A DNA stretch of 64,000 bases from Giardia intestinalis (Eukaryota). Made by a program: the position numbers and the translations under genes. Each line of letters opens with the position of its first letter. Position 1 is the stretch's first letter. Where the stretch lies: the NCBI GenBank assembly GCA_000002435.2, contig CM018793.1; one strand, 5' to 3'. The notes under the pieces are model-generated. The model worked only from the letters and a program-made list of their open reading frames with translations, was not told the origin of the DNA and ran no database searches. Of the stretch, positions 56,632 through 63,999 are shown piece after piece.

Positions 56632-58740
56632 ATGGAGAAGATCAAGACCTATCTAGGTAAGATGTGGGAGCCAATAACAATACTCCAATCGCAAGTACTG
56701 CAGCACGATGTTTTTCAGTCAAAGCCGGGTCCAGTATATATGCAGCCGTCTAAGAGTCCACAGGATAATTCAGTAGATGAGCTTACAACGTCGACCAGTG
56801 ACCCTGCACTTATCACAGATGGCGACGGTGTCAAGGAGCCCGTGCTGAAGCAAGCCTCTCCCACTTCCTCTGTACCCACGCTGATCAATCCCGGAAAGCC
56901 ACCTACTTTGGCGACACAGCCACCTGCCTCTGCCTTTGAGCGCTCGCCATTCACTGCGTGCTTTAACCATGACCCAACCGGTGTACCCTTGCATAGAGGA
57001 TTCGACGAAGACTCCTTCTTTCAGCACCGATCATTCCCAGATGAGGCCTACTACAAGAAAGCTATGCAGCACGTGGGATTTACAGAATACAGGCATGGTC
57101 AGCGAGCCGCGCTGTACTGCATTAATACCATGCGCAAGGTTCTAGCAATTATGCCTACTGGCCACGGGAAGTCTGCCCTGTTCGTCCTCCCTGCGCTGGC
57201 CTCCTCCAGAATTGCTGTTGTCATTATGCCCACTGTTTCTTTGCAACAGGACCAGTTTAATCAGTGGGCTCAGTACTTGACTGTCCGGGTGTGCACTTCA
57301 CAATCAGGGCATAGAGAAGGGGCGATTCGCTCTCGAGACGTTGCTGCACTCACTGGCCCGTTAATACTCATTGTCACTCCAGAAAAGCTTTGCATAGATG
57401 CTATCCTCCAAGAAGCCATTACTTCTCTCACGCAAAGGGGGCGAATCTGTCTGTTTGCCATTGATGAGGCACACCTTGTTCTGGAGTGGGTCTCCTTCCG
57501 ACCCGAGTTTCTTAGTGCAGCAGATCTTCTTCAAAAGTGGCACATGCAAGGTAATAGCAGTCTTCTCTTGCTGACGGCAACGCTCACCTCCACAGCCTGC
57601 CGACGCCTTATGGAGATATTCCATTTTACCTGCAATGACAGGGTGGACGAGATGTGCACAAGCGAAAGACAGCTTCTGTACCGAACCAGTGCTGTGGATC
57701 ATTTGCTTGTCTTTCCTGCTTACAAAGACAATATATTTCTGGATGTAGTAGAGATTGGAGCAAACACCCCACTTATTGAAGAAGTCCTGGATGCGCTGAA
57801 GGGATACATGGCTGACTCCAGTATCATATACTGTCGGAGACGGGCAGATAACGATGTACTAGCCAATAACCTAAATTGTGCCCTGAAGAAAGGATTTGCA
57901 GAATCATATCATAGTAGTAAGCAGGACCAGAGTGAAATTGTGCAGCGGTGGCTTAGCGGAAGAACCCTCTGTGTATGCGCCACTATTGCTTTCGGGATGG
58001 GGATCAATAAGCCAAATGTTCGACTCGTTATCGATGCTGACCCCTCTGGCTCCATCAACACTATCCTTCAGAAGATTGGAAGGTGTGGAAGGGATGGGCA
58101 GCCAGCGAAGGCAGCCCTTTATTACAATTGCAAGGAGCTGCAGAAGCTTCTTCTTATTGTAGCACGGGATCATGACCAGAGCCTTCTTTCTGCCGCCGTT
58201 TCTGCTTGCCTTTTCTACCTTCGAGATGATATCTGTAAGTGGCGGCTAATGTTACTGTACTTTGGTCAAGAGATAGAAAGGAGTGGTGCCCCGATAGAAC
58301 GGTGCGGTCATTGTAGCTATTGCTGTTCGTCCCCCGTGGAAGTCAATGAAGATCACGAATCTGATTCCAGTGACTGCCAGCCTCTAGTACTATCGCTCTT
58401 ACTATTCATTGAGCACAATAAGATGCACGAAGCTGATGGAAAGACAGGCTTCACTGCTGCCATAAATCATTTGGACAAGATCTTCATCCGAAAGCAATCT
58501 AAAGGACGAAAGCAGCCGGAAGGCCCCTTTTATAGCAAGCGTAAGATCCTTCAGACCGTCTTAGAGTTAGTACAAGCTGGCTATCTAGAGTTCTACATGA
58601 GCAGTTTTCAGGGGACCCTTTGTCTCCGTTTGAACCCAAACCGCGCCATAGAGGCAAAGACCATCAGACACATAAGCACAGTCTACAGAGATAAAAGCGA
58701 TAACAAAAGCAACAACAGCAGTTTAATCATTAAAACATAA
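56632..58740 (+). CDS. ATP-dependent DNA helicase, RecQ family
   Basis: Motif I LAIMPTGHGKS. DEAH box FAIDEAHLVLEW. Motif III LLLTATLTS. RecQ C-terminal zinc module CKWRLMLLYFGQ...CGHCSYCC. The ATG is preceded by AAAGAAAAATTAGCC. Confidence 0.85.
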   Translation: MEKIKTYLGKMWEPITILQSQVLQHDVFQSKPGPVYMQPSKSPQDNSVDELTTSTSDPALITDGDGVKEPVLKQASPTSSVPTLINPGKPPTLATQPPASAFERSPFTACFNHDPTGVPLHRGFDEDSFFQHRSFPDEAYYKKAMQHVGFTEYRHGQRAALYCINTMRKVLAIMPTGHGKSALFVLPALASSRIAVVIMPTVSLQQDQFNQWAQYLTVRVCTSQSGHREGAIRSRDVAALTGPLILIVTPEKLCIDAILQEAITSLTQRGRICLFAIDEAHLVLEWVSFRPEFLSAADLLQKWHMQGNSSLLLLTATLTSTACRRLMEIFHFTCNDRVDEMCTSERQLLYRTSAVDHLLVFPAYKDNIFLDVVEIGANTPLIEEVLDALKGYMADSSIIYCRRRADNDVLANNLNCALKKGFAESYHSSKQDQSEIVQRWLSGRTLCVCATIAFGMGINKPNVRLVIDADPSGSINTILQKIGRCGRDGQPAKAALYYNCKELQKLLLIVARDHDQSLLSAAVSACLFYLRDDICKWRLMLLYFGQEIERSGAPIERCGHCSYCCSSPVEVNEDHESDSSDCQPLVLSLLLFIEHNKMHEADGKTGFTAAINHLDKIFIRKQSKGRKQPEGPFYSKRKILQTVLELVQAGYLEFYMSSFQGTLCLRLNPNRAIEAKTIRHISTVYRDKSDNKSNNSSLIIKT

Positions 58741-58754
58741 GACCAGGACCAGTT

Positions 58755-61112
58755 TTAGATAGTATTCTCGTTGATACACCTCCGTGCTATGTTAAACAGC
58801 TGTTGCTGATCAGGTCCCATGATTGCACCAGCAACTATACGAGCCTGGGAAAGCTCAAACATGGAGAGCAAACACCCTGATGCAACCACTATAAACCCTT
58901 GTCTGTGTGCATATGGAAAGACAGTGAGAACACAAAGTGGAGAGCAAGTCAGTGTGGCTATAGCGGACCTACAACCCAGACGCTGCAAGTTCATGGATAG
59001 CCCCTTGTTACAAATGCCACTTACGTCTATGAAGCGTGCTCCCCATCTATCGTCGTTGTGTCCTCGAAGAGCATTGACACAAGAAACGTTATACACATCA
59101 GTTGCACAATATATGTCTTTAGTTTGCACCTGATCAGTTATGAGAATAACGCGCTGAACACCGAGGACTTGACAGAGCCTAGCGGGGAACGTCGTTTCTT
59201 GTAGTGACACCTTGTTGCATATACTTGGAACTACGAAGATAAGAATGCCCGTGCGCACATCAAAGTAGATATCTAACGGACTTGATACTGAAAGGCGACG
59301 ATAGCTGGACAGATCAACACGGTTCTTAACAGAATCAATCAGAATAGCGTTCTTAAAATCTGCAATCACATACGTTTTAATTTCATTGGCAACACGCCCT
59401 ACGTGTTCATATTTTAACTGCTGAATGTTATCAAAGAGTGAAAACTCATACTTTTTAACCAAGGAATGTGTAATCGAAACCTTTGTGGCCGTCGACAAAA
59501 TAGATACAAAGCGAGGATCACTGCATATCTCCAAGAGCTGCTGAGCAGACCCTACGAAAAGATTTTTGAGACCAAGAGCCCGTGCAACGGCGACCAGACC
59601 GAAATGGAAGGCATTAGTCACTGCAGTCATGGTGGTCTTACCTAGCATCGCAGTAATGTATGTACTAGCAGGGTTTTCAAGCGATTCTACGACCAATAAG
59701 AATGTATTATTGGCTAGCGAAGACAAGTATTTATATGCAGAGCCGTTGAACAGAGGTTGTCCTCGGCCTTCCAATTCGACAAGGCAGGCACCATGAACGC
59801 TGGTAAAATTCATGATGTTTTCAAGACGCACCAGCCCAGGGTGCATAAGGGTTCTGTCTAAAATCAGAAAGACACTTATCCCTAACTCCATAGATGCCTC
59901 GAAGACGGCCACAATCTTTCGCAGGGAGAGGTTGAGAGGCACACCAACAACCAGACAAGTATCCATGGGTTTAACAAAGAAGATTGGGGAAGAGATGAAG
60001 AGACAAAATCGAAGCTTACTCAGACCTGGAACATCGTTTAGAATCTCTTTAACGTCTTCTGCGCTGGGAAGGGACTCGGTAGCCGGGACAATCGGTGTAT
60101 CCCGGACCTTGGGGGTATACCTCGAAAGCAGGGGCAGTCTGGGGATGTTGACTCTCGCAATAAGTGCCCCAATTAAAGCGTAAACAGCTGTACTGACAGC
60201 ATCACTTACCAATTTTACATCTGCATGATCAAGGGTCTCCTTAGAAAGACCGGCGGCTAGATTTGTTACCACGCTGAGACCAATGACGTGCATTCCAAGG
60301 AGACGGGCGCAAAGAGCTTCAGGAATGCTAGACATTCCTACTGCCCCGGGCCCTAGTGACATGATAGTCTCCGTGTCAATCTGCGTTTCATAGTGAGGCC
60401 CCGAGTTGAGCACGTAAGTACCCTCATAGACCTTTACCATGTGCTTATGCCCCTTGAGCATGATACTGGTCTTATCAATGAAGGCCTTATCTTTTGCTAG
60501 TTCTCTGACCAAGCTACGAAGCTCTGCAGAATATATGTTAGCATTGGGGATGCTACTTGGATAATGAAATAGACCCGGGGTCTTTAAATAACCCAGCAAC
60601 GCTTTGAGATTCTCTAACTCCAGAAGGCAGTCAGGATCATGTTGGAGCTGGCAGGATTCGTACCCATAAAGAGGGTTCCAGCGGAGAAGGGACATCTGGT
60701 CGTTAATTAGCATCAAACACCCTGCTTCCATGCCCCGCTTTGTCCCTCCTGCCGCATTTGTAACAATATAAATGCGTGCTCCAAGGTAGCATGCAACGTA
60801 AGGGAAAATAGTCAGTGTCGGCGGCGTGTATCCTTCGTAGCTATGAAATCGGCCACTGAAACATAAAATTGTCTTATCTCCCATTTCCCCCACTAGAACC
60901 TTGCCAGAATGGCCTGAAACAGAGGTCTTTGCCATGAAGGGAACGCGTTCGTAATCTATCTCAGTGTAACCAGTGGAAAACATCCTATCGGCAAACCCAG
61001 AAAGACCAGAGCCCAAGACTACGGCTATGTCCACCTTCTTACCAATGATGTTCTTGATATAGTCTGCTGCCTCATGCATATGGGATGTGAAGACATCATA
61101 GGTTAATTGCAT
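58755..61112 (-). CDS. Purine nucleoside phosphorylase (PNP/MTAP family) with a second, catalytically degenerate PNP-like domain
   Basis: Domain 1 covers about the first 290 residues: VVLGSGLSGFADRM, HSGKVLVGEMGDKTILCFSGRFHSYEGY, IVTNAAGG, EGTYVLNSGPHYETQIDTETIMSLGPGAVGMSSIPE. All are trimeric-PNP hallmarks. The C-terminal about 300 aa repeat the fold order (TTFPARLCQVLGVQRVILITDQ...NALRGHNDDRWGARFIDVSG...QGFIVVASG) but lack GSGL, RFHxYEG and VTNAAGG. Start at the ATG at 61112, preceded by GGTTGCAAAAAATAAAA. The ORF-track start at 61172 is upstream read-through. Confidence 0.7.
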   Translation of the reverse strand: MQLTYDVFTSHMHEAADYIKNIIGKKVDIAVVLGSGLSGFADRMFSTGYTEIDYERVPFMAKTSVSGHSGKVLVGEMGDKTILCFSGRFHSYEGYTPPTLTIFPYVACYLGARIYIVTNAAGGTKRGMEAGCLMLINDQMSLLRWNPLYGYESCQLQHDPDCLLELENLKALLGYLKTPGLFHYPSSIPNANIYSAELRSLVRELAKDKAFIDKTSIMLKGHKHMVKVYEGTYVLNSGPHYETQIDTETIMSLGPGAVGMSSIPEALCARLLGMHVIGLSVVTNLAAGLSKETLDHADVKLVSDAVSTAVYALIGALIARVNIPRLPLLSRYTPKVRDTPIVPATESLPSAEDVKEILNDVPGLSKLRFCLFISSPIFFVKPMDTCLVVGVPLNLSLRKIVAVFEASMELGISVFLILDRTLMHPGLVRLENIMNFTSVHGACLVELEGRGQPLFNGSAYKYLSSLANNTFLLVVESLENPASTYITAMLGKTTMTAVTNAFHFGLVAVARALGLKNLFVGSAQQLLEICSDPRFVSILSTATKVSITHSLVKKYEFSLFDNIQQLKYEHVGRVANEIKTYVIADFKNAILIDSVKNRVDLSSYRRLSVSSPLDIYFDVRTGILIFVVPSICNKVSLQETTFPARLCQVLGVQRVILITDQVQTKDIYCATDVYNVSCVNALRGHNDDRWGARFIDVSGICNKGLSMNLQRLGCRSAIATLTCSPLCVLTVFPYAHRQGFIVVASGCLLSMFELSQARIVAGAIMGPDQQQLFNIARRCINENTI

Positions 61113-61130
61113 TTTTATTTTTTGCAACCT
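61113..61130 (-). promoter_or_regulatory. A/T-rich initiator-like element CAAAAAATAAAA immediately 5' of the PNP gene ATG
   Basis: Classic Giardia short A-rich core promoter abutting the start codon. Confidence 0.45.
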
Positions 61131-61342
61131 AAACCCCGATGCAACTAACGACAATCCTTGGTAGATTACCATGGGTATGCAAGATGTTGTAGAAGCATAT
61201 TATCTGTGAATCAGCTTAGTAAATTTACTACCATGCAAACTCTCAACCATCTTCTTATCTTGCGAGCTACTACAGTTGAAGAGGTCTGGACGTTTAAGAA
61301 AGGCGCGAAATTTCACAGAGCAAATCGAGAGCGCATTAAAAA

Positions 61343-61981
61343 ATGAGCTGGATGGATTACACAACCGATGGCCCCGGGCCGGGCGGCTACATGATCCAAT
61401 CAACCATTGGTAAAGCCCCAGCATTTTCTTTGCGTGGAAGGCACAAGGAAAGCTCCAAAGATGCAGGTCCTGGCCCTGCTCAATATGATGTCACCAATGG
61501 AATGAAAGCGACCAAACGGTCTTTACCGTCATTCTCTCTCTCTAGTCGCACTCAGACTCTTGATAAGAAGAACGTTCCTGGCCCTGGTGCATACACTGTG
61601 AGCGATATAGTCGGAAAAAAGAAGGCTCCTGCGTTCTCCCTCTCTGGAAGGCATGCGGTCGCCGCCAGCAACGACAACCCGGGGCCGGGGGCCTATGAAA
61701 ACAACTACCTCTCCACGGGGAAGGACGCGCCGGCCGCCTCCCTTTCGGGTCGCCACCCAGACCTGGCCAAGAACACAAATCCGGGTCCGGGTGCATATAA
61801 TGTAGACAATGACCGCGTCATCAACAGGTCCGAACCGGCGTTCTCGCTCTCCGGGAGGTACGACGTCACGAAGACAAACGAGACCCCCGGCCCAGGGGCG
61901 TATGGTGTTCAAGGAGAGCTGGGTGGTCCTGCATTCACCCTTCGAAGCCGTACAAAAATGCATGTGAAGCCAGTGGATTAG
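61343..61981 (+). CDS. SHIPPO-repeat (sperm-tail PG-rich, STPG/ODF3-like) protein
   Basis: Seven repeats of GPGPGxY...PAFSLxGR (PGPGGYM, GPGPAQYD, PGPGAYTV, PGPGAYEN, PGPGAYNV, PGPGAYGV). The ATG is preceded by GCATTAAAAA. Confidence 0.75.
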   Translation: MSWMDYTTDGPGPGGYMIQSTIGKAPAFSLRGRHKESSKDAGPGPAQYDVTNGMKATKRSLPSFSLSSRTQTLDKKNVPGPGAYTVSDIVGKKKAPAFSLSGRHAVAASNDNPGPGAYENNYLSTGKDAPAASLSGRHPDLAKNTNPGPGAYNVDNDRVINRSEPAFSLSGRYDVTKTNETPGPGAYGVQGELGGPAFTLRSRTKMHVKPVD

Positions 61982-62040: not shown

Positions 62041-63999
62041 CTAAGATATGCTGTCCAGAATGTTTGTACGGGCATAGTAGAGACAACGATCTAATACCCC
62101 AGAGGCAACATTCGGTAGAATGGAGTGCATCCGCTCGAGCTTCTCCTGATTCGGAATATCGCTGCTTTGTATTAGCCTGTCAAAGACGCCGCTTGAAGTG
62201 AACGCAATTTGAGATATGCTATAATTTATGACTGAGATGGTTTCGTAAAGCTGAGTTTGAAATTCCTCACTAGGCAAGTAGAACCAAGCAACAGGGCAGG
62301 CTCGATGAAGCTTTGTCATGTCCATTTTATTCGTATTTAAACGAAGTTTCTTTTTCCATTGTAGCTCATCCAGTTCTAAGGATACTATGTCCAGGATTAA
62401 GGGTCTGTTAAACAGAAGACAATACTGTGCAAACAGTAGGTCGCTGTCCAGCTCAATGTTAGTGGCCCACAATCGATAGGACGAAAACCCACGCAATGCT
62501 CTCTTCGTTCCTCTGATTGCAACTGCGTATATAAGCTCTATAAGTTGCTCCTTAGGTAAGTGCCCGAGTTCAGTGATAAGGGCGTCACATGCAACAAGAT
62601 GGTTATTCATCTCCTGATGTTTCCAGAAGGATATGACCCAGTTATCCAGTAAGCACTCCTCCTCAATGTGCTCAAGTGAATGCAACCTGAGGTCGTTCAA
62701 GGAGGTCATATGGTCATCTGCATGGTCACTCGGTTTGCTGGCATTTAAAGCAGGGCCATCTGTACTAACCTTCCATACATCACCCCAAGATTGTAAAAAT
62801 AAAATCTTCTGCACAATTGAATGTAAATCATTGGAAAGTACAGATTGAGTAGCGGCACATTTTTTGCAAGAATTTGAGATGTGAATAGAAGAGGTGCCAG
62901 ACTGCAAAGATGGTTGGAGAGACACATGTGTTGAAACAAGAGACCACAGCGAGCGGTAAAAGTATGGAGTTGTGGTAGTCGCGCTATAATCATACAACTC
63001 TGCTCTCAGGTACTTTCTGATGTTGCGCTCTGTAAATATCTCCACAAGTCTCTGGTCACCTGGTCTTAAATGGTCGTTAATTCTCTGCCCCTCCTTCAAT
63101 AACATAATCGGGAACACAAGCGTGAGGATTCGCCACGATAGCGAAAGGCTACGAGAGGTGTACTGGTGTCCGGAAGTATTGTATCTTGATTGGCAATAGC
63201 GGAGACAAGTGCTTTTTGACAAGTAGCTACACTCTGGACGTAAAAGAAGCAGTTCTATGAGGTTCATGTTAGTGTTACGGTCAAGTGGGATAAGTTTCTG
63301 CACTTTCCTCGCGAAGACGGCCTTTGCAGCTCTGAATTTAAAATTGGCGCGAAGAAACTGATATTCGGTGGACGAACCAGCATCTATAAAGGAGGTGTTA
63401 GCGTGCAAAAACGGTTTTGCAGCCGCGTCGCATATACCATCTATTTTATCTAAATCTTTTTTGCTTATAACTTGCGAGAGGAAGTCGGCTTCAATAGATT
63501 GAAATTTCTTCAAGAGCTCTTTGGGCATCCTCACCGGTGGCGCTGGACAATCTGTAATTAATTTTTGATCCAGCTTAAGAGCCTGCAAGGTAGACAGAGT
63601 AGTAGGAGGCGGTATGAGAAAGAACCCGGGTGGGCTAACAGAGGTACAGTTGCCGTCGTGTATATTGTAATACAGTGTAACGTTTGCTATCTCTATTTTT
63701 CTATAGGGAACGGAGCGAATGGAAAGAGAAATGTACTTAAGCTCATACAGCAAGCTGGAGACAGCATCAGAGGCGGACAAGAAGCTCGGTGACGGTCCGG
63801 CAATAATTTGCTTGAGTGCAGGAAGCTTCAGTCCATCGCTTGAGATTGACGATATGTCTGTGGCCCTGTCATTGCTGCTCTCGACCACATTGGCTACCGA
63901 GCTTACAGAGTTCTGCTGATTTGCTATGTGCCTCCTTCCCTCAGAGATGATGCTGTTTTTATCAACAGCTGGAGGCAGATAGGAGAGGCGATTAGTCAT
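62041..63999 (-). CDS. Hypothetical protein (at least 652 aa); start at or beyond the window edge
   Basis: Long ORF whose first ATG is at 63997-63999, one base from the window end. No recognisable domain. Confidence 0.5.
   Translation of the reverse strand: MTNRLSYLPPAVDKNSIISEGRRHIANQQNSVSSVANVVESSNDRATDISSISSDGLKLPALKQIIAGPSPSFLSASDAVSSLLYELKYISLSIRSVPYRKIEIANVTLYYNIHDGNCTSVSPPGFFLIPPPTTLSTLQALKLDQKLITDCPAPPVRMPKELLKKFQSIEADFLSQVISKKDLDKIDGICDAAAKPFLHANTSFIDAGSSTEYQFLRANFKFRAAKAVFARKVQKLIPLDRNTNMNLIELLLLRPECSYLSKSTCLRYCQSRYNTSGHQYTSRSLSLSWRILTLVFPIMLLKEGQRINDHLRPGDQRLVEIFTERNIRKYLRAELYDYSATTTTPYFYRSLWSLVSTHVSLQPSLQSGTSSIHISNSCKKCAATQSVLSNDLHSIVQKILFLQSWGDVWKVSTDGPALNASKPSDHADDHMTSLNDLRLHSLEHIEEECLLDNWVISFWKHQEMNNHLVACDALITELGHLPKEQLIELIYAVAIRGTKRALRGFSSYRLWATNIELDSDLLFAQYCLLFNRPLILDIVSLELDELQWKKKLRLNTNKMDMTKLHRACPVAWFYLPSEEFQTQLYETISVINYSISQIAFTSSGVFDRLIQSSDIPNQEKLERMHSILPNVASGVLDRCLYYARTNILDSIS

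Follow-up and report, generated by a model that had tools for sequence, protein, structure and literature searches.

We find that a gene of Giardia intestinalis encodes a purine nucleoside phosphorylase (PNP) followed, within the same chain, by two degenerate PNP-fold domains. The gene lies in a window of 64,000 nucleotides from contig CM018793.1 (assembly GCA_000002435.2), on the minus strand at positions 58755-61112, where it forms a single uninterrupted open reading frame (ORF) of 785 codons plus stop. Its assignment is based on the ORF list and translation, an exact-sequence look-up, and co-linear full-length homologs. The three PNP-type domains, here termed D1, D2, and D3, differ in which parts of the PNP machinery they have kept: the catalytic residues are in D1, while the loop with which one PNP subunit contacts the next is in D3. 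This pattern is conserved across lineages, and all three domains are under purifying selection. Three is also the number of subunits in the trimeric PNP class. We propose that the gene encodes a single-chain PNP pseudo-trimer with one active site, and place the probability of this reading at about 0.6.

The three-domain layout extends beyond Giardia. Co-linear full-length homologs are found in four Giardia lineages and in at least seven other lineages. They include proteins of Hexamita inflata (723 amino acids), Trepomonas sp. PC1 (716 amino acids), and Spironucleus salmonicida (725 amino acids), a protein of 806 amino acids (P0009) from Joint Genome Institute (JGI) metagenomes, and an ENA/Logan lineage (P0045/P0049). 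Two Hexamitinae-like loci, L007 and L013, have the same layout and are readable only when both TAA and TAG encode Gln; L013 was the single new locus from a metagenome scan with three Hexamitinae sequences. In these loci (L007:3159-5414 and L013:3-2144), 14-16 in-frame TAA/TAG codons are translated as Gln under code 6. Each of these Hexamitinae-type genes is cut into three to five fragments (e.g., P0010, P0011, and P0054) by prokaryote-style gene calling, so the architecture is hidden in protein databases. A D2-D3 search of 1.8 billion representatives returned only a handful of relatives, and a word-indexed protein search with the D2-D3 alignment found nothing beyond Giardia.

A distant three-domain protein, P0063, lacks the contact loop in D1, has it in D3, and carries catalytic residues in D1 only. 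Its contig (JGI sample 3300059473; 18.7 kb) is GC- and Ala-rich and apparently derives from a non-diplomonad eukaryote; a single-chain ATP-citrate lyase is encoded near P0063 on the same contig. We also observed a stand-alone PNP-like protein of 198 amino acids (P0012, from ENA) that is N-terminally truncated and without the phosphate-loop region. It retains the 141-168 loop (human numbering) and the C-terminal half, with 40% identity to PNPs, and may be a free-standing “neighbor subunit” or a pseudogene.

D1 (amino acids 1-325; positions 60138-61112) is predicted to be a catalytically competent trimeric-type PNP domain. It matches PF01048 over amino acids 29-318 (E = 1.7e-29; 103.3 bits, cut-off 25.1) and exceeds the curated cut-offs of both NF006054 (E = 1e-71; 241.7 bits, cut-off 218) and TIGR01697 (PNPH-PUNA-XAPA; E = 2e-65; 220.6 bits, cut-off 197.1). 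By these Pfam and NCBIfam scans, D1 belongs to the trimeric-type PNP family. A first-pass annotation, made from the sequence alone, had recognized this N-terminal domain correctly but gave it 290 amino acids, whereas it actually spans ~325.

To compare residues, each domain was aligned to the human PNP sequence identical to that of PDB 1PF7/1ULA, and PNP residues are given below in human numbering. D1 has kept the equivalents of S33, H64, R84, H86, Y88, A116, A117, G118, Y192, E201, V217, G218, M219, S220, T242, N243, and H257, and in all lineages it has Tyr in place of F200. Its phosphate site is complete (S33, H64, R84, H86, and S220), its ribose site retains Y88, M219, and H257 alongside the F200-to-Tyr exchange, and its base site is complete in Giardia (E201 and N243). 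These residues suggest that D1 phosphorolyses inosine/guanosine-type nucleosides. The sole listed exception at the base site is D1 of P0009, where N243 is replaced by Asp. In human PNP, the change of N243 to Asp moves preference toward 6-aminopurines (adenosine).

The first-pass annotation credited this domain with every hallmark of a trimeric PNP. One is missing: D1 lacks the inter-subunit loop (human 141-168 with Phe159) that characterizes the trimeric type. Aligned to human PNP, D1 has after “NPL.G” a nonhomologous insert of 47 amino acids (amino acids 146-192; positions 60537-60677) in place of the loop (human 145-163, NPLRGPNDERFGDRFPAMS), and this insert has no equivalent of Phe159. The insert is found in all lineages but is variable. 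Inside Giardia it is conserved, with a ratio of nonsynonymous to synonymous substitution rates (dN/dS) of 0.064 for amino acids 145-225.

The loop that D1 lacks is retained in D3 (amino acids 549-785; positions 58758-59468), a degenerate trimeric-type PNP domain identified by profile matches, a residue table, and Foldseek. Two C-terminal motifs that the first-pass annotation had quoted as PNP-like, TFPARLCQVLGVQRVILITDQ and NALRGHNDDRWGARF, are indeed present, at amino acids 641-694. Scanned alone, the C-terminal 446 amino acids match the NCBIfam model TIGR01700 (model positions 65-149, E = 2.7e-8) and, as a single sequence, solved PNPs (E = 6e-4). A multi-lineage D3 profile matches solved PNPs in the PDB with E = 4.3e-15, and hhalign aligns D3 to canonical PNPs at 99.2% (E = 3.7e-19). 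The PNP-like signal in the C-terminal part is thus far beyond chance. Because all scores fall under the curated whole-protein cut-offs, D3 is best regarded as a diverged relative of the trimeric PNP family and not as an equivalog. In the full-length AlphaFold model, the predicted local distance difference test score (pLDDT) of D3 is ~80. Foldseek with this model gave PNP matches of 14-16% identity over ~260 columns, reported without a query range and attributed to D3.

The NCBIfam models are more sensitive than Pfam for this C-terminal PNP domain. A PF01048 scan, from which a weak second match had been expected, gave none for the C-terminal 446 amino acids, D2 alone, or D3 alone. The scan proposed as a check would therefore have looked wrongly negative.

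The catalytic residues of D3 have been replaced. Among the 18 tabulated positions, Giardia D3 has only chance matches (S33 and V217), and none is conserved across lineages; Phe159 of the contact loop alone is invariant. The suggested loss of phosphate, ribose, and base residues from the C-terminal PNP domain is borne out by the residue table. The D3 loop, DVYNVSCVNALRGHNDDRWGARFIDVS (amino acids 672-698, equivalent to human 134-163; positions 59019-59099), was located by translation and alignment, and its F694 (codon 59031-59033) is the equivalent of Phe159. Within the loop, L147, G149, N151, G156, R158, F159, and S163 are invariant in all 11 sequences; 10 of these retain R148, and nine each retain N137 and N145. 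The Cys enrichment ascribed to the C-terminal half is real, although it is modest and restricted to D3 (4.2%, compared with 1.8% in D1).

Between D1 and D3 lies a second degenerate domain, D2 (amino acids 346-548; positions 59469-60077), which has neither the inter-subunit loop, here deleted, nor the catalytic residues. Its assignment to a nucleoside-phosphorylase fold is based on the fold match of a model. Giardia D2 alone has no match in Pfam, NCBIfam, or PDB-sequence profile searches, and D2 profiles of 5 and then 10 sequences gave only noise against PDB sequences. Its predicted order of secondary-structure elements in the full-length model matches that of PNP. We also built a template-free model from an alignment of D2 sequences only (Giardia, P0009, P0045/49, Hexamita, Trepomonas, Spironucleus, and P0063). 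This stand-alone model has a pLDDT of 78 and a predicted template modeling score (pTM) of 0.79, and its top 50 Foldseek matches in the PDB are exclusively PNPs and uridine phosphorylases (best E 3.6e-5, probability 0.99-1.00, template modeling score ~0.5).

Profile comparisons point in the same direction. An hhalign self-comparison from five Giardia sequences gave no signal, the profiles being too shallow, and succeeded once distant lineages were added. The D2 and D3 profiles then align in register (82%, E = 1e-5, 92 columns), and the D2 profile also aligns to human PNP residues 73-145. In P0063, D2 matches TIGR01697 directly (E = 1.8e-4). At the structural level only, D2 belongs to the NP-I (nucleoside phosphorylase/hydrolase) fold. 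The C-terminal half had been described as one PNP-like domain; it does contain a degenerate PNP, but it comprises two domains (D2, ~346-548, and D3, ~549-785). The Giardia protein is therefore a PNP with two degenerate PNP-fold domains, not with one.

The division of labor among the domains can be read against the known subunit interface. In trimeric PNPs, this interface is formed mainly by loop 141-168 of one monomer, which contacts residues 87-91 and 196-205 of its neighbor; Phe159 is the sole active-site residue given by the neighboring subunit, and as a monomer the enzyme loses its active-site geometry and is neither stable nor active (PMC9916683). The translation, the conservation table, and this interface definition identify two “acceptor” segments in D1. 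RFHSYEGY (amino acids 88-95, equivalent to human 84-91; positions 60828-60851) carries phosphate and ribose residues, and SGPHYETQID (amino acids 237-246, equivalent to human 196-205; positions 60375-60404) carries the base-binding Glu.

Donor and acceptor elements are distributed in a complementary manner. All 18 catalytic positions are kept in D1 of every lineage, apart from the F200-to-Tyr exchange and the P0009 substitution noted above, whereas in D2 and D3 they are unconserved, with scattered matches that differ from lineage to lineage. The inter-subunit loop (human 137-163) is replaced by a longer insert in D1, deleted in D2, and kept in D3. Conservation of the acceptor segments (H86-Y91 and P198-E205) is restricted to D1. 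Tandem homologous domains with complementary motif loss are what is expected of a single-chain pseudo-oligomer. With acceptor segments conserved in no domain but D1, just one canonical donor-acceptor interface appears to survive, that between the D3 loop and the D1 site. We also note that, at human position 155, D3 has Trp where D1 has Thr202 (Giardia, P0009, and P0063) and Phe where D1 has Ser or Tyr at that position (Hexamitinae). We do not count this covariation as evidence, as no more than one or two phylogenetic events lie behind it.

Purifying selection acts equally on all three domains. In a comparison of Giardia assemblages A and B, dN/dS is ~0.06 throughout (0.066 for D1, 0.055 for D2, and 0.066 for D3), values that are approximate, with dS near saturation. 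Amino-acid identity between the two assemblages is 85-86% for D2 and D3 and 78.5% for D1. Across lineages, identity to Giardia is 36-45% for D1, 14-22% for D2, and 21-27% for D3. The D3 loop is the exception, with 48-59% identity to Giardia.

We suggest the following scenario for the origin of this architecture. Triplication and fusion of a PNP gene would have taken place in a eukaryotic ancestor no more recent than that of the diplomonads. The three copies would then have specialized, D1 keeping the catalytic machinery and D2 and D3 losing it, so that the latter two became permanent structural “neighbor subunits”, a scaffold that D1 needs. The three domains would pack within one chain as the subunits of a PNP trimer do, and the D3 loop would dock on the active-site segments of D1, propping up the D1 site. 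In a closed ring running from D1 to D2 to D3 and back to D1, the loops of D1 and D2 would face dead sites and would be free to decay, the former being replaced by an insert and the latter deleted. The outcome would be one active site per pseudo-trimer, with no need for concentration-dependent assembly. In its broadest form, the proposal is that diplomonads, together with one or more other eukaryotic lineages, remodeled an obligate homotrimer as a monomeric pseudo-trimer of three domains. Exactly one site would remain live, and of the canonical subunit contacts only the one supporting this site would have been kept. We hold this broad form to be slightly better than an even bet.

Several points weigh against a closed single-chain pseudo-trimer. 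The full-length AlphaFold2 model, from a seven-sequence alignment, is poor (pLDDT 48.8, pTM 0.35) and unusable for packing, and no solved structure of the Giardia protein was found among PDB sequences. Classical Giardia biochemistry assigns the cleavage of purine nucleosides to hydrolases. The D3 loop could also dock on D1 of another chain in a domain-swapped manner. Furthermore, the F159A substitution in human PNP barely alters activity (PMC9916683). Since this substitution is nearly neutral, the role of the D3 loop would probably be stabilization of the interface and site rather than chemistry.

Uncertainty over packing leaves some room for a protein in which D1 is an active PNP that oligomerizes with D1 of other chains, while D2 and D3 are appended pseudo-enzyme modules that are regulatory, sense ligands (nucleoside, base, or phosphate), or bind proteins. 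Dead enzyme domains often turn into sensors or scaffolds, and the strong purifying selection on D2 and D3 in Giardia would fit any function. The residues themselves fit this explanation less well. D1 has lost the canonical subunit-contact loop, which makes a canonical D1 homotrimer unlikely. The nucleoside, phosphate, and base pocket residues are unconserved in D2 and D3, across lineages nothing in D3 is strongly conserved except the subunit-contact loop, and there are as many domains as subunits. We consider appended modules of this kind unlikely. We regard as quite improbable a domain-swapped higher oligomer (dimers, trimers, or filaments) whose D1 sites would each be completed by the D3 loop from a neighboring chain. 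The residue pattern suits inter-chain and intra-chain docking alike, and the linkers, of 20-30 residues, are flexible. Nothing speaks directly against such swapping, although a closed intramolecular arrangement is the simplest for three PNP-fold domains, and the decay of both the D1 and D2 loops suits a closed ring with two dead sites.

An artifact is scarcely credible. It would require that two or three genes were joined by sequencing error, or that the C-terminal 460 amino acids are nonfunctional read-through. Database models do vary in N-terminal length (785, 805, 853, and 889 amino acids), and one assemblage B record is divided in two (417 and 368 amino acids). However, the frame is unbroken within the window, an ORF of 783-785 amino acids with conserved synteny is present in independent assemblies of four Giardia lineages, full-length co-linear homologs exist in at least seven other lineages, and dN/dS is ~0.06 in both D2 and D3. 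We therefore ruled out a frameshift or artifactual fusion, and the first-pass annotation's caution that a frameshift might reveal two separate genes found no support, there being neither a frameshift nor a split gene. That annotation had also suggested a covalent pseudo-dimer. The idea of a covalent pseudo-oligomer survives, supported by the sequence statistics of D3 and the fold of D2, while the dimer does not, since two dead domains match a trimer.

The gene itself is known and annotated. Its 785-amino acid translation is identical to G. intestinalis XP_001708591.2 / KAE8306039.1, annotated as [quoted passage not shown]. Older database records carry the label “PNP lateral transfer candidate” and use upstream starts that give 805, 853, or 889 amino acids. 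Public gene models thus conflict on the start (785, 805, 853, or 889 amino acids). The mechanical ORF in the window is also longer (58755-61172; 805 amino acids), with the start at 61112 as its second Met. A-rich initiators adjoining the ATG are typical of Giardia genes. An A-rich stretch, GCAAAAAATAAAA (positions 61113-61127, minus strand), abuts the ATG at 61112 on its upstream side and is read as a likely initiator; A-rich initiators next to the ATG are also mentioned for Giardia muris (PMC7641422). The orthologs of three other Giardia lineages (79-82% identity) start at or near the Met of this ATG. Synteny is kept among Giardia lineages, the PNP gene being flanked by a SHIPPO-repeat gene and, on the opposite side, by a RecQ/DEAD helicase gene. 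Because the A-rich stretch precedes this ATG, orthologs begin there, and synteny is conserved, the ATG at 61112 is likely the true start, giving the 785-amino acid model.

Within the protein, a Pro-rich linker (amino acids 326-345; positions 60078-60137) joins D1 to D2; the full-length model gives it a low pLDDT and assigns it no secondary structure, and it is poorly conserved across lineages. Among the neighbors, the RecQ/DEAD-type helicase gene (56632-58740, plus strand; PF00270 and PF00271; 702 amino acids) converges on the PNP gene. The two stop codons are separated by 14 bp, and the 3' ends of the transcripts must therefore overlap or abut. On the other side, and divergent from the PNP gene across a spacer of 230 bp, positions 61343-61981 (plus strand) encode a 212-amino acid protein of SHIPPO / sperm-tail PG-rich repeats with PGPGAY motifs (PF07004, E = 1e-34). 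Beyond it, a 652-amino acid ORF (62041-63999, minus strand) adjoins the end of the window and has no Pfam match.

Trimeric PNP, a classic target of drugs (immucillins), is also a textbook example of an obligate oligomer, with subunits that seem independent. Why PNPs need to be trimers is still debated (PMC9916683). If our reading is correct, the Giardia protein would be a natural “one-site PNP” that bears on this question, and also on the reported one-third-of-sites behavior of trimeric PNPs toward transition-state inhibitors. It would represent a ready-made evolutionary experiment on which parts of a neighboring subunit are indispensable, since only the loop touching the live site was kept. 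The salvage enzyme of diplomonads would then differ from the host enzyme in quaternary structure, and the parasite enzyme would have a drug-targetable interface not present in human PNP. The unique inter-domain surfaces (the D1 insert, D2, and the linkers) could allow selective targeting. The essentiality of purine salvage, also raised by the first-pass annotation, is generally true for Giardia, yet the case for the PNP enzyme itself is weaker than was stated. G. muris lacks the PNP gene (PMC7641422, Table 4), and the essentiality of Giardia PNP is consequently not established.

For annotation, the practical consequence is that databases see one PF01048 domain in proteins of 720-800 amino acids, leaving ~460 residues effectively unannotated; the precomputed domain annotations of these proteins list PF01048 only. 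Our literature search, incomplete in coverage, found no description of a single-chain multi-domain PNP or of the extra 460 residues in diplomonads, and where papers on Giardia and diplomonads mention PNP, they do so only to record its presence or absence or as a marker of lateral transfer. The architecture and its complementary-loss pattern thus appear undescribed.

Among known systems, the homotrimeric low-molecular-mass “mammalian-type” PNPs (human and calf; PDB 1ULA, 1PF7, and 1A9O) are the natural reference. D1 shares their fold and all of their residues for binding phosphate, ribose, and base. D3 derives from the same PNP domain, as does D2 more remotely, and the D3 loop matches their 141-168 contact loop, including Phe159. 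These enzymes consist of three identical chains, whereas the Giardia protein is one polypeptide of three nonidentical domains with one possible active site. Its catalytic domain also lacks the contact loop, and the contacts at the two dead sites would be noncanonical.

The closest bacterial relatives of D1 returned by our searches, at 34% identity, are the phosphopentomutase-PNP fusions of Clostridia (P0005-P0008 and P0061), which are likewise multi-domain PNP fusions. In these, however, the partner is another enzyme of the pathway (PF01676) and not a dead PNP copy, and the PNP domain retains the canonical loop. These fusion proteins are also relevant to the “lateral transfer candidate” label of the Giardia gene. 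P0063 is closer in architecture, as it shares with Giardia the D1-D2-D3 order, the loss of the loop in D1, and its retention in D3. Its D2 and D3 are far less degenerate than those of Giardia: against canonical PNPs, D3 has 29-35% identity (E = 1e-18 to 5e-25). P0063 would show an earlier stage of the Giardia protein.

The best conceptual precedent is the monomeric dUTPase of herpesviruses (Epstein-Barr virus, PDB 2BSY; Tarbouriech et al. 2005, as summarized in PMC12524310). It arose by duplication and fusion of the gene for an obligate homotrimer, and complementary motif loss left a single active site built from domains that act as neighboring subunits (PMC12524310). The two systems differ in fold (jelly-roll in the dUTPase, NP-I alpha/beta in PNP), in the number of domains (two rather than three), and in the viral origin of the dUTPase. 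Moreover, dUTPase subunits share the catalytic motifs themselves, whereas the neighboring subunit of a PNP supplies a buttressing loop only.

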